The translations under genes were made by a program, and so were the position numbers. Positions 702 to 27,151 of a stretch of DNA of 64,000 bases are shown here, in pieces. Under the pieces are notes generated by a model, which was not told the DNA's origin, made no database searches, and saw only the letters and a list, made by a program, of their open reading frames with translations. Positions within the stretch are counted from its first letter, which is position 1, and every line of letters starts with the position of its first letter. The stretch lies in the sequence record PQ758395; one strand, given 5' to 3'. The DNA is from Escherichia phage phita32.

Positions 702-2071
702 TGGAAAAGGGGCAGTATGATGTAGGCACAGATGCTGCCCTCGTTGCAATCATGAGCGGTGAGAATGTCTTCGTTTCAGGACCCGCAGGTTGTGGGAAGA
801 CGTACCTCATCAACATGATCCAGTCAATGTATGGAGACTCTTGCATAACGGTTGCCCCGACAGGGGTAGCCGCTTTAAACGTTAATGGAGCAACAGCACA
901 CCGAACCTTCGATCTTGCAGCAGGTGTGAGCATGGAGTCAGACTGGACCGCAATAAGGGCAAAAACAGCAAAGCCTTTGAAGAGCAAGGCATTTACCATC
1001 TTAATTATCGATGAAATCTCTATGATCCGTGCTGATAAGTTTATAGAGATGGATAGGAAACTCCGCTTCCTTCGAAAAAATGACAAACCTTTCGGAGGCA
1101 TACAGGTCATATTGTTTGGCGATTTTTACCAGGCACCTCCTGTTGTCTCTTCTATGGAGAAGGAAGCCTACTTCAACTTCTACCATACGGACTTGTGTTG
1201 CTATACCGAATCTTGGAAAGAGCTTGACCTCCACAACATAGCCCTAATAGATCAGTTCCGACAGGAGTCTATTCGATTTGCCACAATGCTTAACTGTGTT
1301 CGTGAGGGTCGTCGCATAAAAGAGGTTGTAGCAGAGCTTAATGCTCACTGTTACAAAGGTGGTGTACCAACAGACGCTCTCACAATTTGCGCCACCAACA
1401 AACAAGCAGAGGAAGTGAACAGAAGGTTCTATGATGCCATCAACGCCCCAGAGAAGGTATACACTGGTGAAATGAAGGGTAAGTTTCCCTCCACCCTGCC
1501 AGTTGAGCAGGAGATGAAGTTGAAAATTGGCATGAAAGTTATGATAACCGCCAATGATGTTGACCCGACGCACAAAGTACCTTATTATGTTAACGGAACA
1601 CGTGCCACAATTGTTAAATTTAAGAACAAGGCAGTGGTGGTAGAGCTTGAAGATGGAACACAGGTTGACATAGAGCAGAGGTTGTGGGAGAATAACGAGT
1701 ATAAGCCCTCTCAGAGATACAACATTGCAGAAAGGAAGATGGAGAAGTTTATAGAGAGGGTAGTGATTGGGTCATACAAGCAACTTCCTCTGAAATCTGG
1801 GTATGCCGTAACATCTCATAAAAGTCAAGGACTTACGCTAGATTGTTACAACCTAGACCTTGGAAAGAACGGAGCTTTCTCTCCTGGGATGACGTATGTT
1901 GCTTTGAGTCGAGTTAAGACAATACAAGGAATAAACTTGTTGCGTCCACTAAGAGAAGTTGACATTATTGTTGACCCGCGAGTCGTAGAGTTTTACAATA
2001 CAACATTCCCTGACTTAGACAAAATTGTCAGGAAAGATTTTGAAACCAGAGCAGAAGAGGGGGACGTATGA
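701..2071 (+). CDS. Dda/PIF1/RecD-like SF1 DNA helicase
   Basis: Walker A GPAGCGKT, Walker B LIIDEISM, C-terminal VTSHKSQGLT motif typical of Dda/RecD/Pif1 helicases. Confidence 0.8.
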   Translation: MEKGQYDVGTDAALVAIMSGENVFVSGPAGCGKTYLINMIQSMYGDSCITVAPTGVAALNVNGATAHRTFDLAAGVSMESDWTAIRAKTAKPLKSKAFTILIIDEISMIRADKFIEMDRKLRFLRKNDKPFGGIQVILFGDFYQAPPVVSSMEKEAYFNFYHTDLCCYTESWKELDLHNIALIDQFRQESIRFATMLNCVREGRRIKEVVAELNAHCYKGGVPTDALTICATNKQAEEVNRRFYDAINAPEKVYTGEMKGKFPSTLPVEQEMKLKIGMKVMITANDVDPTHKVPYYVNGTRATIVKFKNKAVVVELEDGTQVDIEQRLWENNEYKPSQRYNIAERKMEKFIERVVIGSYKQLPLKSGYAVTSHKSQGLTLDCYNLDLGKNGAFSPGMTYVALSRVKTIQGINLLRPLREVDIIVDPRVVEFYNTTFPDLDKIVRKDFETRAEEGDV

Positions 2072-6601: not shown

Positions 6602-9025
6602 ATGAGTATGTGGTCTTTCGATCTGGAGGCCTCCGGGCTTTTGGAAGATCTAGATCTTTATTATCACTGCGGTCTGTTTAAAGAGCTGAATAAGAACCGT
6701 TTTATGCTGTTCCTTCCTCTAAATGACCGCACACACTACTCCAAGGAGGATATAGAGAAGGCCAAGAACTTTATTCTGGCAAAGAAAACTCTTTATAAAG
6801 ATTTTGAAGTCCGCATAGCAGATTTTTCGGAGTTGGAAGGTTGGCTTACAGGCAATTCCGACTGGTCACCAACAGCTTTGAACTGCCATAACTGCTACAG
6901 TTATGACTTTATGCTGATGGAGAGATTATCCGGTATTCATTTTGATATGTTCCGTGATCCTAAATGCATGGGGACTATCAACGACCACCAGGTTAATCTG
7001 TTTGATACGTTGGCGATGAGCCGAATCTTGTGGCCTGATCGCCCTTTACCAAAAGGTTGTCCGGACTCTGTATTCAACCCGGTTACTAAGAAAATGCAGC
7101 CTGTTGGTCCTCACGGCCTTATGGCATGGGGCTACGCCCTTGGTAACCAGAAAGTTCAAATTGATGACTGGCGCGATCTTCCGTTGTGGAAGTATGTGGA
7201 TCGTGTATTCGAGGACGTTATCATCCAGGAGCTGCTCTGGAAAGAGCTGGTAGCGGAATCAAAAGGTGTATTCTACGGCAAATCTGACATGCAGAACTTT
7301 ATGTATGATCCTGCCAAAGAGAAGCCGAAAGGGTTCAAGAAGATCACCTGGAAGAACGCATTACGTCGAGGCATGCTGCAGCACTTCCTGATGGAGCTGC
7401 AGGCCCGTCAGGGTGTATACTTCGACATAGATGGAGCTATTGCTTTACGTGACCGTTGCGATGCGTGGATGAAAGAAATCGCTGATCGTGTTGAACCACA
7501 ACTACCTTTAAAAGAGCTGTCAATGTCTCAGCGGCCCAAGTTCCCTGAAAAGCCGTTTAACCAAGACGGGACAATCTCTAATAATGGTTGGAAATGGTTA
7601 AAAGATAAGCTTGGCTATCCTGTAGACATGAGCGCTTTAGAGTTCAAAGCCCCGCCTAAGCGAGCATTTACCTCTACAGGGGATGTCAGCAAGATGGGGA
7701 TAAAATGGTGTGAAGAGATGGGCTGCAAAGACCCCGATAAGATGGCTGATTTCTTGAGAGGCTATATTAAGGGTACCTCCACACCACAACCTTTACCTAA
7801 AGAGCTAATGGATCAGGCAATAAGTGATCTGCAGCAGAAGCGAATGCCTGACTGCAAGATACCTATGAAAATCGGCAATCAGGACGACATCAAGCGATAC
7901 CTAATCAGTGCTGGTTGGCTCCCAACAATGTGGAGAACTAAAGATGTAACTAAAGACAGCAAGAAGAAAGCTTTACCTGATGCAGATGTTGATGCACGAG
8001 TATATGCATACATGGACGAGCTTTTAGAGTCAGAGTATTGTGACCTGATTATCAACTTCTGGAACAAAACTGATGCTAAGTTTCAGACAACCGTGCACAA
8101 GTTCCGAAGCTTTCCTAACTCCGAAAGGATTAAAAAGGAAGTGTTCGGGAAAATACGTAGAAAAGCCAGGGCACTTATTACTTCTCCGCAACTGAAAGAT
8201 ACGTTTGGACACCTATGCCCAAATCTTGAAAAATTGAACGGAGAGATGGCTAAAGATATCGTCTTGTGGTTATCATTGCGAAACCGCAGATCGGTCCTTG
8301 ATCCAATCAAGGAGGATAAGGTTGATACTGGTCTTCTTAATCACCCACGTTTGAAGATTGACCATAAGCTTCCTGCTAAAAGCTCTGGATTAACAAACAC
8401 TTCCAGACAGAAACACAGTATTTGTGCAAACATGCCTAAACCATCTCCTAAAGTGGTTATGGGTAAAGAGATGCGTAGTCTGTGGGGTGTTCCTCCAGGA
8501 TACTTTGAGATCGGTATTGACGGGTCCAACTTAGAGCAGCTTATCGGGGCTTGGGGTGCCTTTGAGTTCGACAACGGCTTGTATTATGATGTTGTAAGTA
8601 ACGGAGACGCACACCAAAACAATGCTGAGGCATATACAAAAGTAGCAGGCAGAGAGGTGTCCCGTAACGACGGTAAACCTATCACGTATGGGGTTATGTA
8701 CGGGGCACAAAAAGATAAAGTTGCAGATATGCTGGACATCTCTCCAGAGTTGGGACAAAGGGTAATCGATGCACTCTGGGATGCCAACCCAGGTCTTAAG
8801 GGGCGCAAAGAGGATCTGGAGAAATTCTGGGAAGCAACAGGTAAGAAGTTTATCTACTCTTTTGATGGTCATGCTATCTGGACCAGATCTAAACACTCTT
8901 TACTTAATGCATACCAACAAAATGGCGGTGCATCGTTGTGTGACTTAGTTGGAATACTCATGCACCACCAGATGGTGAAGCGTGGGTGGTACGATGAAGG
9001 TGTTCGTCGTATTATTTATTACCAT
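6602..9025 (+). CDS. DNA polymerase, family A, exon 1 (3'-5' exo + palm motifs A and B)
   Basis: N-terminal FDLEASG Exo I-like motif; motif A YFEIGIDGSNLEQL; motif B RNDGKPITYGVMYGAQ; ORF runs 2 codons into intron before stop at 9031. Confidence 0.8.
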
Positions 9026-9301
9026 AAATAACATTGTGGCTTCATAGAGTAATCTATGTCGAATAACCTCTTTAACTGCGGGAAGCCTAAACCTTATGGC
9101 AAGGTAATCCGCAACGAAGCGCTCAAAAGAGCGAACGCTCAGAGGCCATTCCGAAAGGAAGTAGACCAGCAAGTGCGGTCGAAATGGGAGGATTCCTGTG
9201 GTTGCTTATTATAGGAATATGAGATGGTCCGATCCTACGTGAAAACGTATGGCTATGCACGTAATGGTGCGGGGTAGCTTAACGACCTACCTGAACTATT
9301 G
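9026..9301 (+). ncRNA. group I self-splicing intron (no ORF) in DNA polymerase gene
   Basis: Exon 1 ends in U (..UACCAU) pairing with intron GUGG guide at 9037-9040; intron ends in G 9301; P/Q/R/S-like core elements AACTGCGGGAAGC 9074-9086, TAATCCGCAACG 9105-9116, GCTCAGAGGCC 9137-9147, GAGATGGTCCGATCC 9221-9235; splicing restores motif C YHDEYQLQV. Confidence 0.6.
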
Positions 9302-9655
9302 GATGAGTACCAACTTCAAGTGCCTGACACACCGAAGTATAAGACTGTGTACACCTTCGACACAATTGAAGAACTGGAAGCATTTAAGGCAGAGCAGGAA
9401 GCCAAACTTCATGTGTTCGACGGTCATAAGTACAAAAAGGCACGCAAGGATGAGGACGGAAACGAAGTGGTTGACAGAGACGGAAACACGGTGTACGATC
9501 CTATCCTGAACGATGACGGAAAGCTTGAACTTATCTGGAGCCCTGTGGGTGAAATGGTGGTGCATTGCTTCTGGCAAGCTTCTAAAATGATGGGAGTCCC
9601 GTTCCAGATCACAGGTGAATACTTGTGTGGGGCTAATTGGGGTAGTTGCCATTGA
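9302..9655 (+). CDS. DNA polymerase, family A, exon 2 (motif C and C-terminus)
   Basis: Begins DEYQLQV (completes HDE motif C) and ends GANWGSCH, matching T7 pol / Pol I C-terminal signature; no start codon or SD of its own. Confidence 0.7.
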   Translation, partial: DEYQLQVPDTPKYKTVYTFDTIEELEAFKAEQEAKLHVFDGHKYKKARKDEDGNEVVDRDGNTVYDPILNDDGKLELIWSPVGEMVVHCFWQASKMMGVPFQITGEYLCGANWGSCH

Positions 9656-9666
9656 TCTGATAAGAG

Positions 9667-10323
9667 ATGTTTGCTATGGAAGAATGGAGAAAACTGGTTG
9701 GCAAGGAGGCCAACTATGAAGTTAGCAGCAAAGGAAGGATTAAAAGGCTGTCTTACCTGAGGAAGTACAGTAACCAAACAGGTAAAGTTACTTTCAAAGC
9801 TGTCCCTGACAGGATTTTAAAAGGTAGCGTAGACAGTAGCGGTTACATTCAAGTAAATGTGGATGGAAGATCGGAATTGCTTCACAGGTTAATTGCCGAG
9901 ACCTTTCTAGAGCCTCCTTCAAAAGAGCTTGTAGAGGAATGTAAGGCAGCAGGGCTGGACTATGTACCGATTAATCATAAAGACCATAACCGCCTAAACA
10001 ATGCTGCTGACAACCTTGAATGGGCCTCGCCTTCAAAAAATGCACAAGATGTGGACTACGATTACTGTAAAACAAGAGGTGAAAATTCATACTGTGCAAA
10101 ACTTAAAGAGCGAGATGTTGACGAAATATTAAAGCTTTCCAAAACAGGTATGTCGCAGCAAGCTATAGCAGATCTTTTCGGTGTTAATCAGATAACCATT
10201 TCCAATATCTTGACAGGAAGGAGTTGGGCATGGTACACTGGGATACCTAAAACCGCAAGGTGTAAAAACAAAAGGAAGAGATCCCCAAAAAGCATGTCCG
10301 AGCAAAATTTCTCGGTAAGCTGA
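9667..10323 (+). CDS. HNH homing endonuclease (NUMOD4 + HNH_3 + C-terminal HTH), free-standing
   Basis: EEWRKLVG..YEVSSKGRIKRL NUMOD4-like; INHKDHNRLNNAADNLEW HNH motif; C-terminal LSKTGMSQQAIADLFGVNQITISNIL helix-turn-helix. Confidence 0.8.
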   Translation: MFAMEEWRKLVGKEANYEVSSKGRIKRLSYLRKYSNQTGKVTFKAVPDRILKGSVDSSGYIQVNVDGRSELLHRLIAETFLEPPSKELVEECKAAGLDYVPINHKDHNRLNNAADNLEWASPSKNAQDVDYDYCKTRGENSYCAKLKERDVDEILKLSKTGMSQQAIADLFGVNQITISNILTGRSWAWYTGIPKTARCKNKRKRSPKSMSEQNFSVS

Positions 10324-10382
10324 TTGTCACTAATGTAAACTATCAACACATGGAAGTGTTGTTGAGCAAAGAGGAGACTTTT

Positions 10383-10667
10383 ATGGTAGTAGAACCAACA
10401 AAAACATTTACATCTATGACTATCCCTGTTATTATGCAGGTGGAGTGTGTTCAGGTATCTCAAGTGTGGCCTGGCACCAAAATCCCAACAGGGCCTGATT
10501 TCTTTCAGGTTGGGAAAGTGTACAATGTCTGGAAGGCACCAGATTGTTACCCTTTCATTAAAGATGACCGTGGAATGTTGTGGTATCTTGGAAATGATTT
10601 GACACTGCACCTTGGGAATGCTATTATTGCAGTATTCAGACTTAACAAGAAGGAGACCGATCAATGA
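10383..10667 (+). CDS. hypothetical protein
   Basis: Start moved from track 10350 to ATG 10383 with AAGAGGAG SD. Confidence 0.45.
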   Translation: MVVEPTKTFTSMTIPVIMQVECVQVSQVWPGTKIPTGPDFFQVGKVYNVWKAPDCYPFIKDDRGMLWYLGNDLTLHLGNAIIAVFRLNKKETDQ

Positions 10668-10891
10668 CAACTTTGGTTAAAGCTACTTTTGTAGAAGAAA
10701 AGATGACAGACCTGTCCTTCTTTAAAGAAGGAAAGACCTACGAGGTTTATTACGATAAAAATCGTGCAAACAAGATGATTAAAGACGAGGAAGGGATTGC
10801 CTGGTTTATCTCCCATCTGGCAAACGGTGAGTATCATATCTACGGAACCACCCTGCTTGCCAAGTTCGTAGCTGTTGAAGAGGACCTATGA
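10664..10891 (+). CDS. hypothetical protein
   Basis: ORF with AAGGAG SD, ATGA overlap. Confidence 0.45.
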   Translation: MTTLVKATFVEEKMTDLSFFKEGKTYEVYYDKNRANKMIKDEEGIAWFISHLANGEYHIYGTTLLAKFVAVEEDL

Positions 10892-11082
10892 AAGTAAAGT
10901 ATCTGGCTGAGGGTATGAGTAGGTATTTCACCCTTGGTGAAGAATATTGGCCCTTTACAAGCAACGGCGATGTATACGTGAAAGATAATTTCGGCACGCC
11001 GTGGTTTCTGCACTCTAATGGGCTGGGATACTCCATTTACTGTGGTGCAGTGAACAACACAACCCTTGCAGAGTTCGTTTAA
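10888..11082 (+). CDS. hypothetical protein
   Basis: ORF, ATGA overlap with upstream gene. Confidence 0.4.
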   Translation: MKVKYLAEGMSRYFTLGEEYWPFTSNGDVYVKDNFGTPWFLHSNGLGYSIYCGAVNNTTLAEFV

Positions 11083-11092
11083 AGGAGGTAGG

Positions 11093-11464
11093 ATGTTAGT
11101 AAAAGGTACCCACACAGTCAAACAACGTATTGAAGTTGAGATTGATGATTGTGAGCTGAAGCATATTTTACGGTCATGCTCCAACGTTTTGCTCCTTAGC
11201 ATTCTTCAGGAGCGGGCAGAGAACGAGTTCTTAAATGCACTGGCAGGCCGTCCTGGTGACTTCTGTGTGCGTAAGCGTGGTGACAACAAGTCATGGTTGT
11301 GGGAAATCGATGCCGACTGGGATTACCACAAAAATGAGGGTATAGATGAGCCTATTCGTGAATTGACAGACAAAGAGATTCAGATGTACAATGAAGTTTG
11401 TCATTGGGCAACACGCCAACAAATTTACCTCGACCCTGTGTGGCTGATTGAAAATAGCCATTGA
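11093..11464 (+). CDS. hypothetical protein
   Basis: Start moved from track 11066 (TTG) to ATG 11093 with AAGGAGG SD. Confidence 0.45.
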   Translation: MLVKGTHTVKQRIEVEIDDCELKHILRSCSNVLLLSILQERAENEFLNALAGRPGDFCVRKRGDNKSWLWEIDADWDYHKNEGIDEPIRELTDKEIQMYNEVCHWATRQQIYLDPVWLIENSH

Positions 11465-11489
11465 CAAGAAGTAAGATTAGATATAAGAT
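11461..11489 (+). promoter_or_regulatory. sigma70-like promoter (TTGACA-17-TAAGAT)
   Basis: -35 TTGACA 11461-11466, 17-bp spacer, -10 TAAGAT 11484-11489, upstream of gene 11541. Confidence 0.4.
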
Positions 11490-11540
11490 GCTTCACACAA
11501 ACAGAGCGTTGATTTTTAAATAACTAAGGAGACTGCCAAG

Positions 11541-11792
11541 ATGAAAATTACTTTGAAGCCAGAATGCGTTGCAAATGACCGAGCTTTTAAAGATTGCACA
11601 GTCGGTGCAATTTATGAAGCAGAGTTTTGTGAGAGCCCTCTGGTAAAAGCCCTTCTGGAAGAAGGCTCTTTATCACAAGAAGAGATCGATGAGCTGGAAA
11701 ACTCAGCACAGTGCCTTACCTTTAAAGATGATGAAGGAGACTCTGTCTGGTGCACTGTTAACGAAGTCGTTTTTGTAAAACCTGAACATTAA
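11541..11792 (+). CDS. hypothetical protein (tandem paralog A)
   Basis: ORF with AAGGAGA SD; shares AF(K/R)DCT and DD(E/N)GD..(W/F)CT motifs with the next gene. Confidence 0.5.
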   Translation: MKITLKPECVANDRAFKDCTVGAIYEAEFCESPLVKALLEEGSLSQEEIDELENSAQCLTFKDDEGDSVWCTVNEVVFVKPEH

Positions 11793-11795
11793 TAC

Positions 11796-11824
11796 TTGAC
11801 AACAGTGATGGGGCCTAATATAAT
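11796..11824 (+). promoter_or_regulatory. consensus sigma70 promoter (TTGACA-17-TATAAT)
   Basis: Perfect -35 TTGACA 11796-11801 and -10 TATAAT 11819-11824 with 17-bp spacer. Confidence 0.6.
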
Positions 11825-11855
11825 GGCCCTATCAAAACGAAAGGGGACCACAGCA

Positions 11856-12116
11856 ATGACCAAACAATATCAACGAATTAAAGCCAAGGTTAAGCCAGAC
11901 TATCTGGAGAAAGACTCTGCTTTTCGGGACTGCACAGCCGACAAAGTTTACACAGGGGCTGTCCTATTGAACGATAAACTTGAAGTAGATGTGCTGGGTA
12001 AAGAGGCCGTTATCGAGGATGACAACGGTGACTGTGTTTTCTGCACCACACGGGAGCTAGAAGTCTTAGAATACTTCGGTGAAATCTTCAACTCCTTAGA
12101 CGACGAGGAAGCGTGA
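11856..12116 (+). CDS. hypothetical protein (tandem paralog B)
   Basis: Start moved from track 11796 (which overlaps the promoter) to ATG 11856; paralog of 11541..11792. Confidence 0.5.
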   Translation: MTKQYQRIKAKVKPDYLEKDSAFRDCTADKVYTGAVLLNDKLEVDVLGKEAVIEDDNGDCVFCTTRELEVLEYFGEIFNSLDDEEA

Positions 12117-12505
12117 TGAAAAATATTTGGGATATTGATATCTTTGAAGCCTCTAAGCTTGACGGTGCTGATGGAGTGATTATGGTGTCTGATGGCAAGG
12201 CAACACTAACTTCCGGAGATATCATCTATGCCTTGGACGAGCTGGCGCTTCTGAAATCTATCGGTAACACTTTGGAGGAGCGTCTTCAAGGCTTCGCTTT
12301 CAAAGAAGGTACAAATACCGCCATGATGTGCACCACACGGACAGTCCAGGTAGGTAACGGTGTCTATATGATCATTGCTGTGTGTCCTAAATTCAGCAAC
12401 GTCAACAAAGATGATACTGACGCTGTCAACGATGTGGTTGTTCTCTTCGTGGGTGACGCTATGGCAGATCTGATGAATGCAGGAGAAGCAGCAAATGAAG
12501 ACTGA
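12113..12505 (+). CDS. hypothetical protein
   Basis: ORF with GAGGAAG SD. Confidence 0.45.
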   Translation: MMKNIWDIDIFEASKLDGADGVIMVSDGKATLTSGDIIYALDELALLKSIGNTLEERLQGFAFKEGTNTAMMCTTRTVQVGNGVYMIIAVCPKFSNVNKDDTDAVNDVVVLFVGDAMADLMNAGEAANED

Positions 12506-12797
12506 AAACATCACCCCCGCAAGGTTCTTAAAAGTATACCGTGAACTGCTATATACTACAGAGGACAGTGTTCTAGAGTATCCAGAATATCTTTTGCTGT
12601 ATAAGTATCTGCAGGAGGCTGGTGAAAATCTGCCAGTTAGTGCAGAAGGTGGTCCGAACTGGATATACAGCGCATGGAGAAAGGTTGACATTCTCCCCGA
12701 CCCAGGTAAAGATATGGTAGTTTGGCAGCTTATCAACAACATCGGGATTCCAATCTTTGATGAAGCTGTTAAAATCTATTTTGAACTTGACGATTAA
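12495..12797 (+). CDS. hypothetical protein
   Basis: Start moved from 12477 to ATG 12495 (AGGAGA SD at 12481). Confidence 0.4.
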   Translation: MKTENITPARFLKVYRELLYTTEDSVLEYPEYLLLYKYLQEAGENLPVSAEGGPNWIYSAWRKVDILPDPGKDMVVWQLINNIGIPIFDEAVKIYFELDD

Positions 12798-12814
12798 TAT
12801 CAGGAGACCTTAAG

Positions 12815-13060
12815 ATGACTGAAGTAGTTGCTCGCGCAGGACAGAAAGTACGTTGTGTTGAAGTAGGTTTTGGTGGCAAAGGGTGTCAAAACTTGACTCA
12901 AGGTAAGGAATACGCTGTTATTTCTGGTGGTGGCGACGAAAGTATTGTGTTCGAGGGCCACATCCTGGATGCTGAAAACTTTGAAATCTTTGACGACGAT
13001 GGGGATCCGATCACCTGCCTGCTGGACGGGAATTGGGGAACTTTTGAAGTGATTGGCTAA
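12815..13060 (+). CDS. hypothetical protein
   Basis: ORF with AGGAGA SD. Confidence 0.45.
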   Translation: MTEVVARAGQKVRCVEVGFGGKGCQNLTQGKEYAVISGGGDESIVFEGHILDAENFEIFDDDGDPITCLLDGNWGTFEVIG

Positions 13061-13143
13061 CAAATATCTATTGTAATTTGCAGAAGGGGATGCTAAAATA
13101 GTGTCTCCTTCTATGTTGTTCAAATAAAATCGGAGATTCCATA

Positions 13144-13509
13144 ATGGAACAAATGAACGATCAAGCGTCGGTTGCGATGAACGAGCAAGAACAACCTCAA
13201 GAATTTTTCTTAGGGTTAAGTAAAGATCAAGTGTCTCTTTTGCTAGTGCTTTCTTCTTTCATGGGAAGACTTCAAGAGCTCACACAACAACCGGAGGCTG
13301 AACAATTATTTCAGGCTCTGCGTGAAGAAGAAAAATATCGTCGTTTGGACTATGCCTTAGGTTGGGTAGCTCAACAACGGGATATGCTGATGGCCCTCTC
13401 TGGGACCACAAGTTTTGCAATGGGCCTGTTGGCTCAAGTTCAGGACAAATTAATTCAAGCAGGGTTCGCACACACGGCAAGCACTAACGAAGAACAAGGA
13501 GACAAATAA
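13144..13509 (+). CDS. hypothetical protein
   Basis: ORF with SD; Gln/Glu-rich. Confidence 0.45.
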   Translation: MEQMNDQASVAMNEQEQPQEFFLGLSKDQVSLLLVLSSFMGRLQELTQQPEAEQLFQALREEEKYRRLDYALGWVAQQRDMLMALSGTTSFAMGLLAQVQDKLIQAGFAHTASTNEEQGDK

Positions 13510-14780
13510 TGAGCGTTATTCAACAATTCGCTAACCCAATGAATCCGCGTGAAACTGTTTTACTGGCTCACGGCATGATTAAACGTGTTAGCATCAAGCC
13601 TATCAAAGGTGCTGATCCTACAACAGGTATTAAAACCACTGTGTGGCAAGGTAAGAAAATTGAATCCAGCCACACCATCTCTTTACTGATTTCTGAACTG
13701 GATTCCTCTGATAACCTGCTTCAAGGTGGTGAAGAAGTCTGGATCAGCATGGGTGATAAGCTGCTTAAACCAGGTCATCAAGACTCTGTCTCTGTTAAGA
13801 TTGATGACAAGTGGGAAACCGTAACGCCAGGATGGATCGTAAATATCCCTTTGAAGGCAAACGAGCATAACGGTAAGACCTATTACAAGGGCTCACTGGC
13901 TAAGATGGTTAAGCTGGGTGCAGGAGAGGCTCCAGCAGCGACTCAGCAGCAAAAACAGCAACAAGGTGCACAATCACAAGGCCAGAAGCAGAAACCTCAG
14001 CAGAATGCCAATCAGGACGTTTTACGCATCTATGGTGATGTGACTCAGATTGTTGGCAACGTGGTTACTGTTAATGACCACAAGATTGGCGAAGGTGCTA
14101 TGGTTGTCACTGATGAGCAGCTTAAAGATCTGGTGGTAGGTGGTCGTGTTGCAGCCATTGTTGACAAAGACACCGGAAACATTATCAGTGGTTTCAAAGC
14201 CTATCCTCCTAAGGCAGAGAACGGCACTCAAGGCTCCGGTGGCAAGCGTAAATCCTCTTACGACCCTATCGGTGTGGAAACGGGGCATAGCATCAATGCG
14301 TTGCAGATCATCCTGGATCGCGGGTTTAAGGTAGACGACCCACTGGGCGTGGCTAAAACACTGCACGTAGTCACCATTGAGCTTAAGAAAGAGTATGCTC
14401 AAGCCACCAACCGAACTGAAGATGAAGTAGGTGCCAGTGTCGGTAATGCGGTGTTGAACGCTTGTCGCCGTATTGACAAGAAAACGAAAGTTGATGATTT
14501 TGCAGCGGCAATTACTGCAGAAGCAAAAGATGTCTTGACTAATCTGGCTGAGCCGTTGTACGATTGGATCAAGAACGGTGCTGGGTCAACTGACCATCAA
14601 GAACCTCAGGCTGCCAAACAGGAAGCAGCTCCACAGCAAAACACTGTAGACGCTCCTCCTGTAAATGATGAGGAAGATGACCCAATGGATCAGAATCCGG
14701 CGCAGTATGACTTCTGTGATGACATACCTTTCGCTCCGGTAGGTTTGCAATATGGCAAAAGTAGAATCCACGCATTGTAA
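13509..14780 (+). CDS. hypothetical protein with Gln-rich linker and SSB-like acidic DDIPF tip (possible ssDNA-binding/replication accessory protein)
   Basis: [20 protein letters not shown] low-complexity linker; acidic [22 protein letters not shown] near C-terminus resembling the E. coli SSB tip; ORF reads 18 aa past DDIPF into the next gene. Confidence 0.4.
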
Positions 14781-18929: not shown

Positions 18930-19500
18930 TCAGGTTGCCAGAGATCAGGAGGATTTCTAAAATGGATTTCCTCCTTTTGATATTTTACCTACCAGGATAT
19001 TTTAAAATCCTTAGAAAATCAGAAAATGGATCGAAAACTAAAATGGATTTTTCAGAGCAGGCACGACGAGATGAACCACTCATCCTATCGTTTGCACCAT
19101 ATTCCAGACCACCATTACAGATTTCCCGCACATGCTCACATCCTTCTCCTAGAACTTCCCCCACTTACCCTTGACCTTTTATGGTAATGATATAACCACT
19201 ATCTTGAAGTTGCGGTGCAGCTTTCCAAGTACTCGATCTGTTTTTCGTTTCAAAGATTGAATTTTCTGAAAATTTTTCTCGATAAATTTCTCAGTACTCG
19301 ATCTGTTTTTCGTTTTCTGAATCGGATTTTCTGGAAATCGTTCCGGCTCTCGACCTGAAATTTTTGGGGACGAAATCGATTTTTCGTTTTCAGAAATGGA
19401 TTTTTAAAATTTCTATATGGGAATATTTTAGTGGATACTATTTTATAGGAAATTGTTACGGAGGGTAATTAGCGTGCTAATTAAATTTATTAAATGCGAG
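18930..19500. repeat. ORF-poor region with short direct-repeat families
   Basis: AAATGGAT(T/C) four times (about 18961, 19024, 19040, 19405); TACTCGATCTGTTTTTCGTTT twice (19221, 19293); TTTTCGTTTTC variants. Confidence 0.4.
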
Positions 19501-20811: not shown

Positions 20812-20839
20812 TTGACACGCCACAAAATTTAAGTAGACT
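20812..20839 (+). promoter_or_regulatory. sigma70-like promoter (TTGACA-16-TAGACT) with leader hairpin
   Basis: -35 20812-20817, -10 20834-20839; GGCGGGAAACATCCCGCC hairpin 20849-20866 then CA-rich leader and SD. Confidence 0.5.
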
Positions 20840-20883: not shown

Positions 20884-21279
20884 ATGAATAAGAACGTACG
20901 CCGCATCATGAACGAACTGGCAAACGATGAAAAAATTATTGACATGCATTTGGTCAACATTTGCCGCCGTTGTGTAACATACAACAACCGCGCCGCAAAA
21001 GCGCGTGAGATGAACGCAAAAGGCACCTTAAAGCCCTTTCAGGTGGTTGTAAAATCTATAACTAATGCAGCAGGCCAGGCGCATGATCACAACAACGAGA
21101 GCACTAATATTGATCCGTCTTACGTAATGAAACGGATCCGGACTTGCAAGAATAAAGAGCAGGTGTATAACGTCATAGATTGGCTTGATTCCATGGGCGA
21201 CGTGGTTTACAATAGATTTTCTGCAGCTATTGAAATTCAGTTAGACAGGTTGGACGGGAAAGTACTAAAAACTTACTGA
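20884..21279 (+). CDS. hypothetical protein
   Basis: ORF with GAGGAAAAG SD. Confidence 0.5.
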   Translation: MNKNVRRIMNELANDEKIIDMHLVNICRRCVTYNNRAAKAREMNAKGTLKPFQVVVKSITNAAGQAHDHNNESTNIDPSYVMKRIRTCKNKEQVYNVIDWLDSMGDVVYNRFSAAIEIQLDRLDGKVLKTY

Positions 21280-21290
21280 GTTTATTTTTA

Positions 21291-21327
21291 GATGGCCTTG
21301 ACTCCAGGGCCATCAATAAAGTAAACT
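21291..21327 (+). promoter_or_regulatory. palindrome-embedded promoter (GATGGCC-TTGACT..-GGCCATC, -10 TAAACT), copy 1
   Basis: 7-bp inverted arms flank the -35; near-identical copies at 21912 and 25629. Confidence 0.45.
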
Positions 21328-21359
21328 AATCCCAGTTAAGCGAAAAAGGAGGCTTGAAG

Positions 21360-21479: not shown

Positions 21480-21507
21480 TTGACAAGCTAACTTAGATCA
21501 GTATACT
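21480..21507 (+). promoter_or_regulatory. sigma70-like promoter (TTGACA-16-TATACT)
   Basis: -35 21480-21485, -10 21502-21507. Confidence 0.55.
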
Positions 21508-21558
21508 AAACACATAAACGGGAAAACTTCCCAGAACACACAAAAGGAGAAAAACACC

Positions 21559-21900
21559 ATGACTACTATGACCGCCGCAGAAAAAGCTATTCAGGTTGCA
21601 GCACTGAAAAAACAGATCGCAGACCTTGAGAACAAGATCGATAACTTTGAAATCGACGAGGACAAGTACGACGAAAACTATGATGAATGGTTAGACGAGA
21701 TCTACGGCGAAATTATGATCGGAAACATTTCTTTTCTTCCGTCGCGTATCCTCAAGGAGCTAGATCCTATCGCTTACCGCTGCGGATTTAGCGACTACAT
21801 CGACAGCCTGGATATTGAGGACGATGAAGAATACCAGGAATTACAGACAGAGTTGGAAGAAGCAAAAGAAGAGCTTGCAGAACTGGAAGAAAACGAGTAA
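21559..21900 (+). CDS. hypothetical acidic coiled-coil protein
   Basis: ORF with AAGGAGA SD; highly acidic C-terminus. Confidence 0.5.
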   Translation: MTTMTAAEKAIQVAALKKQIADLENKIDNFEIDEDKYDENYDEWLDEIYGEIMIGNISFLPSRILKELDPIAYRCGFSDYIDSLDIEDDEEYQELQTELEEAKEELAELEENE

Positions 21901-21911
21901 ATTTATTTTTA

Positions 21912-21948
21912 GATGGCCTTGACGCCAGGGCCATCGATAAAGTAAACT
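21912..21948 (+). promoter_or_regulatory. palindrome-embedded promoter, copy 2
   Basis: GATGGCC TTGACG CCAG GGCCATC .. TAAACT. Confidence 0.45.
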
Positions 21949-21989
21949 TTATACTGTTAACACTGAACTAATACAGAGGAGTTAAAACC

Positions 21990-22235
21990 ATGGCAGCACT
22001 AATCACCAAATACTATGCACCGACCAACACCAAAAGCGCACGCATCTTGGTAAAAGGATTCGGACGTAAAAAGGTTTACACCTGGGATTATGCCTTAGAC
22101 ATGGAAGACAACTACACCAACGCGATGACAGATTTTATTAATGAACTAAATAAACAGATCTTAACCAATTATAAGGTGACCGACATCGCCTATGTTGGGG
22201 AAGGTGGGATCTGTTTTGTCGGTATTGTCAAATAA
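21990..22235 (+). CDS. hypothetical protein
   Basis: ORF with GAGGAG SD. Confidence 0.5.
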   Translation: MAALITKYYAPTNTKSARILVKGFGRKKVYTWDYALDMEDNYTNAMTDFINELNKQILTNYKVTDIAYVGEGGICFVGIVK

Positions 22236-22247
22236 GCTGTTTTTCGG

Positions 22248-22267
22248 TGGCCCTGGTGGCAGGGCCA
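22248..22267. promoter_or_regulatory. variant palindrome TGGCCCTG-gtgg-CAGGGCCA
   Basis: 8-bp arm hairpin/operator followed by TATAAAG; related to the GATGGCC..GGCCATC family. Confidence 0.3.
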
Positions 22268-22309
22268 TCTATAAAGATAGTTTATTAACACCATGAAAGG
22301 AGAAAGTAC

Positions 22310-23348: not shown

Positions 23349-23405
23349 TAAACACACAGGCGGGAAAACTTCCCGCCACTAACAAAGAAAATAGGAGAAA
23401 ATATC

Positions 23406-25416: not shown

Positions 25417-25617
25417 ATGAGCAACAATATCCGCGTTATTAACTTCAAAAAAGAAGAAAAAATTGCCGTGCTGATTGACGGTCAAGAAATCTTCAAGGGC
25501 TATTATGAAGATCATCAAACGGCGATTAGTATCACTCGCGTGATCGGTTACCATAATTTCTACCCCCAAGGCGCTGAGGCAGCGGTTAAACGAATCAAAG
25601 AGATTGTAGGCCTGTAA
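25417..25617 (+). CDS. hypothetical small protein
   Basis: ORF with AAAGGAGAAA SD. Confidence 0.5.
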   Translation: MSNNIRVINFKKEEKIAVLIDGQEIFKGYYEDHQTAISITRVIGYHNFYPQGAEAAVKRIKEIVGL

Positions 25618-25628
25618 ATTTATTTTTA

Positions 25629-25665
25629 GATGGCCTTGACTCCAGGGCCATCAATAAAGTAAATT
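25629..25665 (+). promoter_or_regulatory. palindrome-embedded promoter, copy 3
   Basis: GATGGCC TTGACT CCAG GGCCATC .. TAAATT; near-identical to 21291 copy. Confidence 0.45.
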
Positions 25666-25707
25666 TTAATCGTGATAAAATAATCAGTGCAAAAAGGAGT
25701 AATGATC

Positions 25708-27069: not shown

Positions 27070-27151
27070 AATAGTTTGACAACAGTCAACAATCTGGTAA
27101 AGTGTACTACATAGCGCGGGAATACTTCCCGCCATTAATGAGGGTAATTTA

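Follow-up and report, generated by a model that had tools for sequence, protein, structure and literature searches.

The 64,000-nucleotide stretch of DNA analysed here (the window) belongs to a Vequintavirus, an rV5-like coliphage, and between positions 9000 and 14000 it is 96-98% identical to vequintaviruses of E. coli, among them 241Ecol014PP, RudolfGeigy and rV5 (NC_011041). The locus lies in the early, replication-side ORFan region of the phage, where two small genes, ORF1 and ORF2, are found directly 3′ of the split DNA polymerase gene and within a same-strand row of small unassigned genes. Both reading frames were recovered in the ORF map on the + strand exactly where the first-pass annotation of this DNA had placed them, at 11541..11792 and 11856..12116. 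ORF1 (paralogue A) encodes 83 amino acids, is the orthologue of rV5 gp215/ORF220 and belongs to phrog_12544; it is preceded by the Shine-Dalgarno (SD) sequence TAAGGAG at 11525..11531 and ends with the stop codon TAA at 11790..11792. ORF2 (paralogue B) encodes 86 amino acids, is the orthologue of rV5 gp214/ORF219 and belongs to phrog_11936. Its SD sequence, AAGGGGA at 11841..11847, lies 8-9 nt 5′ of the ATG at 11856 and reads AAGGAGA in several relatives. Both rV5 counterparts are labelled 'hypothetical protein', and the gap between the two genes is 63 bp.

Upstream of ORF1, a promoter scan identified a sigma70-type promoter on the + strand at 11461..11489 (TTGACA-17-TAAGAT, a 10/12 match), the −35 box of which overlaps the stop codon TGA of the preceding gene (11462..11464). 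This site is the annotated promoter P220 of rV5 (NC_011041), it is present in the rV5 promoter Table S4 (PMC3606486), and both of its hexamers were invariant in a three-way alignment. ORF1 is presumably driven from this promoter.

Relationship and distribution of the two genes

The first-pass annotation had proposed that the two genes are paralogues because of short motifs that they share, and this proposal was borne out. The similarity between ORF1 and ORF2 is significant in a pairwise BLASTP comparison (36 bits, 32% identity over 76 columns, E 2e-9), and the PHROG matches are reciprocal, each protein matching the family of the other at 1e-5 to 5e-5; both additionally match a third family, phrog_17459. 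At the structural level, the AlphaFold model of ORF2 retrieved the ORF1 orthologue of phage CM1 from BFVD (E 7.6e-5, TM 0.62). An alignment of 16 family members shows little or no variation in the two motifs that had been noted, AF(K/R)DCT and DDxGDxVxCT: ten columns are invariant (D, F, D-C, Y, L, D, G, V, C), and the A of AF, the second D in DD and the D in GD are nearly invariant. ORF1 and ORF2 are thus true paralogues, and PHROGs 12544 and 11936 can be joined in one small family of acidic early proteins with a predicted beta-barrel fold.

A search with the family HMM, unfiltered, against all 487 ORFs of at least 40 amino acids in the window returned no further paralogue, the next best match having an E value of 0.38. 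The small neighbours at 10350..11082 and 12815..13060, which look alike, have no detectable relationship to the family. The gene at 12116..12505 shares an in-frame 12-nt identity, yet it was rejected as a paralogue on an hhalign E value of 0.011 and a probability of 3.8%.

The family has a narrow distribution. It was present in 115 of 50,697 phage records, all of them from Vequintavirus, and an HMMER scan of 1.84 billion representative proteins returned 10 proteins at E <=1e-3, one of which is a spurious repeat protein; two word-index searches retrieved close relatives only. Further loci for comparison came from a DNA-pattern scan of viral contigs, which contributed four, and from protein-based scans of viral and metagenome contigs, which yielded two and four, and 21 GenBank phage regions were added to the set. 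In four uncultured relatives among these loci (L007, L008, L036 and L037), an ORF1-like gene is followed directly by an ORF2-like gene. The identity of ORF1 to its counterparts is 64% for L007 and about 51-53% for L036 and L037, while ORF2 is about 33-49% identical to its counterparts in L036 and L037, depending on the alignment. Since the pair stands side by side in all four relatives, the duplication predates these lineages. Gene order and divergence therefore indicate that it is older than the split of the E. coli vequintaviruses from their nearest uncultured relatives, and that ORF1 and ORF2 are an old, maintained pair rather than a recent copy.

Codon variation is consistent with maintenance of both genes. 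ORF1 shows 46 synonymous and 26 nonsynonymous variants across 22 homologues, and ORF2 shows 40 synonymous and 10 nonsynonymous variants among relatives. The predominance of synonymous changes indicates that both are real genes under purifying selection, with ORF1 under the more relaxed constraint. ORF1 has been called as a shortened CDS in two deposited genomes, Alma (50 amino acids) and JLBYU08 (73 amino acids), which reflects either sequencing error or a dispensable ORF1.

Properties and predicted fold of the proteins

Each protein is about 9.5 kDa and acidic, with a pI of 4.2 for ORF1 and 4.3 for ORF2. AlphaFold predicted a five-stranded small barrel for both, with a pLDDT of 82.3 for ORF1 and 82.6 for ORF2. 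In the ORF1 model a two-helix insert separates strands 2 and 3; ORF2 is without this insert and has an additional acidic C-terminal tail. The top PDB match for both models is YorP of the SPbeta prophage of Bacillus subtilis (PDB 2HEQ), with probabilities of 0.91 and 0.98. The superposition with YorP is nevertheless weak (TM 0.41-0.49, E 0.13-0.15, which is not significant, and 11-12% sequence identity), and a Foldseek search of the PDB with both models gave no match at E <0.1. YorP does resemble the two proteins in being phage-borne, 84 amino acids long and likewise without an assigned function, and the next PDB matches for both models are SH3, Tudor and PWWP domains. The models thus place ORF1 and ORF2 in the SH3/Tudor-like small beta-barrels, an assignment that concerns the fold class only. 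Searches by sequence returned no Pfam match for either protein, the YorP family included, and no match in a PDB sequence-profile search; the PHROG matches carry no functional annotation, and the BFVD matches are uncharacterised phage proteins only.

Cysteine-based metal binding, which had been raised in the first-pass annotation, did not hold as a feature of the family, since only two cysteines (C26 and C63 in ORF2 numbering) are invariant across both paralogues. Within the ORF1 clade alone, however, four cysteines (C19, C30, C58 and C71) are invariant, and a Cys4 site in ORF1 is possible. Roles in host takeover or anti-defence are typically suspected for small acidic early phage proteins. Our best guess, based only on size, acidity, early position and narrow distribution, is that ORF1 and ORF2 are early host-interaction proteins, which would make the family a source of host takeover or anti-defence candidates in therapeutic E. 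coli phages.

The start codon of ORF2

Three different starts have been used for ORF2 in GenBank: 11796, which is the TTG of a −35 box, and the ATG codons at 11823 and 11856. Many records place the start at 11823, where the ATG is made up of the last two bases of the −10 box and the first G of a stem described below, and some others place it at 11796. The relatives distinguish between these starts. Between 11823 and 11856, MiataMamis carries a 1-nt insertion, Alma a 1-nt deletion and CM1 a TAA in frame; at the −10 box of L037 there is no ATG, the ORF2 start of L007 is closely preceded by a TAA, and L008 has a GTG at the 11856 position, after a perfect AAGGAG. These indels and stop codons agree with the start at 11856 that had been given in the first-pass annotation. 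Judged by these comparisons, the stretch from 11823 to 11856 is noncoding and ATG 11856 is the true start of ORF2. The longer annotations accordingly contain translated −35 and −10 boxes, and the start can be corrected for many of the approximately 115 deposited Vequintavirus genomes.

A conserved promoter between the genes

The gap between ORF1 and ORF2 contains, as the first-pass annotation had reported, a full consensus sigma70 promoter, TTGACA-17-TATAAT, at 11796..11824 on the + strand (−35 box 11796..11801, −10 box 11819..11824), with a 12/12 match and a 17-nt spacer that are conserved in relatives. Sites of this type are not expected by chance at the frequency observed in the window, which holds 10 sites with at most one mismatch to TTGACA-17-TATAAT against 0.63 expected (about 16-fold). 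No change in the −35 box or in the 17-nt spacing occurs across 17 distinct sequences, and the −10 box varies at position 3 alone (T/C), while the spacer and the flanks vary freely. Invariant columns accordingly make up 11 of the 12 hexamer positions against 9 of the 43 other positions (Fisher p 1.4e-5). The match is still 12/12 in L036 and L037, at about 50% protein identity and despite diverged flanking DNA; in L007 the promoter has been lost at this locus. This pattern of conservation looks selected.

The transcript start of a functional sigma70 promoter, that is, the 5′ end of the primary transcript, lies 6-8 nt downstream of the −10 box. From the conservation of the site we infer that the promoter is active and that its transcripts would begin near A11831; a literature search found no transcript-start, RNA-seq or reporter data for any Vequintavirus. 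The published rV5 promoter list includes P220 and has no promoter before ORF219 (PMC3606486), so that the site at 11796..11824 adds a conserved, putative early promoter to that list.

The promoter had been taken to give the second copy independent and stronger expression, which is plausible from the sequence but too narrow a reading. From the ORF map, the rV5 and 241Ecol014PP annotations, and Pfam and PHROG matches, three genes follow ORF2 on the + strand: the first at 12116..12505, the second, a DUF7238 gene, at approximately 12495..12797, and the third at 12815..13060. The end of ORF2 and the beginning of the next gene share 1 nt in the sequence TGATG (12114..12118), and there is no further intergenic gap from ORF2 until a hairpin at 13082..13112. 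This tight packing argues that the 11796 promoter is an operon promoter and does not serve ORF2 alone. Co-transcription being deduced from the packing, the promoter probably drives a four-gene operon of ORF2 and the three downstream genes, which defines a probable early operon extending from ORF2 to 13060.

The hairpin at 13082..13112, on the + strand and 3′ of the presumed ORF2 operon, was picked up in the terminator and promoter scans as a terminator-like stem-loop of 14 bp with a weak U tail. Its fold z-score is −3.3, and none of 200 shuffled sequences was as stable. A −10-like TAAAAT lies in the loop of this hairpin, and TTGTAA is located 17 nt upstream of it.

A covarying hairpin around the −10 box

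The same gap holds a second element that the first-pass annotation did not contain. RNA folding and covariation revealed a stem-loop at 11806..11834 on the + strand, TGATGGGGCC-taatataat-GGCCCTATCA, with a stem of 10 bp (9 of them well conserved) and a 9-nt loop formed by the −10 box. The RNA fold centroid of 11780..11870 has an energy of −18 kcal/mol. In the 17 distinct sequences, 91.8% of the cells of the stem are paired; with the 3′ partners displaced by 1-3 columns, this proportion falls to 28-47%. A first set of sequences had given a similar picture. Changes on both sides occur at 5 of the 10 stem pairs; G-C is replaced by A-U in the rV5 group, for example, and U-A by C-G in L008, L036 and L037, and one position of the stem alternates between G·U, A-U and G-C among the sequences. 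The covariation score was reached by none of 500 shuffles, although the sequences are phylogenetically related and the shuffle statistics overstate the significance.

The covariation also carries information about the strand. Most of the one-sided changes are G·U pairs on the + strand, in 17 cells distributed over 7 positions; unpaired cells in the 9-bp core number 5. A G·U pair on the + strand corresponds to an A·C mismatch on the other strand. When the excess of G·U over A·C is counted as events, about 8 of 10 are G·U, which is suggestive only (binomial p 0.055). This excess favours a structure in the sense-strand RNA, and the comparison of relatives thus points to the 11806..11834 hairpin as a sense-strand RNA structure. 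The start near A11831 lies downstream of nearly the whole hairpin, so transcripts from the embedded promoter could not form it, and the RNA in which the hairpin folds is most likely that reading through from the upstream promoter.

In L007, which lacks the promoter, the equivalent place is occupied by an unrelated 9-bp hairpin, CAGAGGCAU...GUGCCUCUG, indicating that the hairpin has a role of its own. Since the downstream genes of L007 have no detectable promoter of their own, the hairpin there cannot be a full terminator. For the element in the window, a Rho-independent terminator was considered and rejected, since a U tract is absent (the tail is AAAACGAAAGG) and the element was not called in the intrinsic-terminator scan. 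A search of Rfam gave no match in 11400..13200 at E values up to 1.

Resemblance to the PeSL cassettes of T4-like phages

The arrangement matches the promoter-early stem-loop (PeSL) cassettes of the T4-like phages RB49/phi1, PST and nt-1 (Arbiol et al. 2010, PMC2839356; Comeau et al. 2014, PMC4122927). In these cassettes the stop codon of an upstream ORFan is followed in order by a near-perfect TTGACA-N17-TATAAT promoter, a stem-loop, an SD sequence and a start codon, and the stem-loop is built of a G-run and a C-run, contains G·T pairs and often overlaps the −10 box (PMC2839356). In a lacZ reporter the PeSL stem-loop acted as a terminator, and PeSL promoters proved to be very strong (PMC2839356). 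PeSL cassettes are further characterised by mini-circle formation and by an association with ORFans that are inserted, deleted or replaced between close relatives.

Here, likewise, the gap between two small ORFans is filled by a stop codon, a promoter, a hairpin, an SD sequence and an ATG in the PeSL order; the promoter is fully consensus (12/12, 17-nt spacer), and the stem-loop consists of G/C tracts (a GGGGCC/GGCCC core) with the −10 box in its loop. There are also clear differences. The phage is a Vequintavirus and not T4-like, and the 11806..11834 element is single-copy, with no match within 3 mismatches of its 20-nt core in the 64 kb. PeSL cassettes occur in many similar copies, conserved over about 100 bp, that are dispersed in hyperplastic regions and able to recombine, whereas the element here lies outside all repeat families of the window; because it is single-copy in the window, it cannot serve as a recombination repeat with a nearby twin. 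With respect to the AT-rich UP region of PeSL promoters, the −35 box here begins 3 nt after the stop codon, and the 15 nt upstream (GAACATTAATAC...) are AT-rich but coding. By analogy, the cassette would work like a PeSL in a different phage lineage, and we make no claim of a recombination-active repeat family. The layout of promoter and stem-loop is thus already known from T4-like phages, and the finding, while real, is a fairly ordinary one that will not surprise a phage specialist. What it adds to the first-pass annotation is the covarying hairpin, the settled start of ORF2, the fold class of the two proteins and the age of the duplication.

ORF1 can also be compared with the moron-type or single-gene transcription units of phage early regions, in which a gene has a promoter and a terminator to itself, since it lies between its own promoter at 11461..11489 and a downstream stem-loop and looks monocistronic. 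It differs from such units in that its stem-loop, lacking a U tract, does not qualify as a canonical intrinsic terminator, in that its neighbours have the same orientation, and in that ORF1 in L036 and L037 has no promoter to itself and is coupled to the gene upstream.

A possible boundary between two transcription units

The reading that we favour, and consider moderately probable, is that the intergenic element is a PeSL-type boundary cassette, with a hairpin that attenuates the ORF1 message or caps it and an embedded promoter from which transcription starts anew for ORF2. The host sigma70 RNA polymerase would start at the promoter at 11461..11489 and transcribe ORF1. Past ORF1, the nascent RNA would fold into the 10-bp GC-rich hairpin at 11806..11834, which would attenuate read-through and/or cap the 3′ end of the ORF1 message. 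Separately, polymerase would bind the embedded consensus promoter and start near A11831, giving a transcript with an unstructured, A-rich leader and a good SD sequence. From this transcript ORF2 and the next three genes would be expressed, up to the hairpin at 13082..13112. In L036 and L037, ORF1 is translationally coupled to the preceding gene, and the cassette thus stands at an operon boundary in these relatives.

Much of the evidence that the hairpin acts as RNA would also fit an element of RNA processing or stability, such as an RNase III/E site or a 3′ protective stem that uncouples the decay of the ORF1 and ORF2 mRNAs. Such an element would account for the missing U tract and the sense-strand preference, and also for L007, where the hairpin has no promoter downstream and read-through must therefore occur. 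On the other hand, a perfect stem of 10 bp is short for RNase III, and similar PeSL stem-loops terminated transcription in the reporter (PMC2839356). As the same computed evidence fits processing and attenuation alike, it counts for neither against the other, and overall we regard a processing or stability element as unlikely.

The inverted repeat could alternatively act as DNA, with a dimeric repressor of the phage or the host binding GGGCC-N9-GGCCC as an operator, so that the early promoter is shut off later in infection. The axis of dyad symmetry falls exactly on the −10 box, where operators are classically found, and the early sigma70 promoters of rV5-like phages need switching off, for which an Srd-like anti-sigma factor has been proposed in the rV5 paper. 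However, 5 of the 9 core pairs change identity while pairing is kept, which leaves no fixed recognition sequence; the asymmetric G·T intermediates are common while their mirror image, A·C, is rare; and in L007, which has no promoter here, a hairpin persists although its sequence is unrelated. These observations make an operator quite improbable.

It is very improbable that the promoter match is unused, with the paralogues co-transcribed from the upstream promoter and the hexamers conserved through constraints on the hairpin and flanks. In favour of this reading, the published rV5 list has P220 and nothing before ORF219, and the conservation of a −10 box in a hairpin loop could be partly structural. 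Against it, the −35 box, which is not part of the hairpin, never changes while the neighbouring bases of the spacer do so freely, the 17-nt spacer length is constant, and the 12/12 match persists in distant relatives. Consensus-type sites are moreover enriched about 16-fold in the window, and in RB49 the PeSL promoters of this form had such strength that mutations arose in the clones (PMC2839356).

If the boundary cassettes of vequintaviruses work as those of RB49 do, the PeSL principle would extend beyond T4-like phages. A further-reaching proposal, which we consider improbable, is the following: rV5-like phages, which are unrelated to T4, would have independently evolved or acquired PeSL-type cassettes, the placement of the −10 box in the loop would be a functional switch and not just a matter of compaction, and the element at 13082..13112 would belong to the same system. 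Folding of the element in read-through RNA, or in DNA that is briefly single-stranded or supercoiled, would in that case link transcription from upstream to whether the embedded promoter fires or is occluded, and the cassettes would insulate and shuffle single-ORFan units in a second phage lineage.

Other promoter-plus-hairpin combinations occur in the window, namely the repeat families D1, D8 and D13 and the element at 13082. Hairpins were found at 9 of the 57 promoter-like sites, against a background of 7.75%; since this enrichment is modest, we claim no genome-wide system. With regard to shuffling of the flanking genes, no flanking indel was found in the 115 Vequintavirus genomes, all of which fully cover the region. 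Among the uncultured relatives, L037 differs from L036 by an extra insertion of about 290 bp, containing an ORF of 53 amino acids, directly after the cassette.

Hairpin-associated promoter motifs elsewhere in the window

The pairing of promoter-like hexamers with stem-loops recurs on the + strand in a 55-nt intergenic repeat present in four copies (21276..21330, 21897..21951, 22231..22285 and 25614..25668). In every copy, an AT-rich stretch is followed by a 10-bp hairpin (GATGGCCTTG/CAGGGCCATC; fold z-score -4.9), with TTGAC(G) at the hairpin loop and TAAACT 18 nt further downstream. The repeat looks like a promoter/stem-loop cassette in which the -35 box lies inside the hairpin.

A 14-bp stem-loop within 13071..13112 (+ strand; fold z -3.3) includes TAAAAT in its loop, with TTGTAA 17 nt upstream, and is a second instance of a -10-like hexamer within a hairpin loop, the first being that of the cassette between the tandem paralogues ORF1 and ORF2. 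It lies where the presumed ORF2 operon ends, ahead of the gene at 13144..13509.

Predicted promoters of the TTGACA-16-TATACT type near 20812, 21480, 23321 and 27076 (+ strand) have A/T-rich tracts upstream. Approximately 10 nt past each -10 box there is a short GC hairpin (GCGGGAAAACTTCCCGC), expected to lie at the 5′ end of the transcript. The repeats at 21507..21544, 23349..23386 and 27116..27138 (+ strand) belong to this series. Separately, a repeat unit of about 65-74 nt is present as three tandem copies (74-79% identical) at 19219..19404 (+ strand), where the DNA appears to be non-coding.

Surroundings of ORF1 and ORF2

The gene that follows ORF2 shares with it an identical in-frame 12-mer, TGCACCACACGG (codons C-T-T-R; + strand, 12042..12053 in ORF2 and 12329..12340 in the next gene), which occurs twice in the window against an expectation of 0. 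The database protein P0008 (131 aa) is a fusion of ORF2 with this gene, the junction falling exactly at the 12-mer, and profile comparison of the ORF1/ORF2 family with the gene gave a weak match (E 0.011, probability 3.8%). With a match this weak, a third, diverged copy of the family is no more than a possibility.

In the uncultured relative L037, approximately 290 bp absent from its close relative L036 separate the ORF2 homologue from the promoter/hairpin cassette; this insertion, at about 920..1183 of the Logan ERR4678662 contig, contains a 53-aa ORF that starts directly after the cassette. Upstream of ORF1, the -35 hexamer of the promoter known in rV5 as P220 (11461..11466) overlaps the TGA stop codon (11462..11464) of the preceding gene (11066..11464), an overlap showing that regulatory and coding signals are tightly packed.

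Intron and related records

The DNA polymerase gene appears to be split by a group I intron, since an Rfam match to such an intron (9016..9251, + strand; 63 bits, E 1e-13) separates two ORFs (6602..9031 and 9299..9655) that are each named 'DNA polymerase' in the rV5 annotation. Shortly 3′ of the second lies an HNH endonuclease ORF (9667..10323), found only in the window and in phage 241Ecol014PP; coverage of 9000..14000 is just 86% in most other genomes. Over this same region, E. coli vequintaviruses share 93-98% identity with 16 MG0656xx records titled 'Campylobacter phage' (UNVERIFIED, with C. jejuni given as the host); these records were probably either mislabelled or propagated on contaminating E. 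coli.
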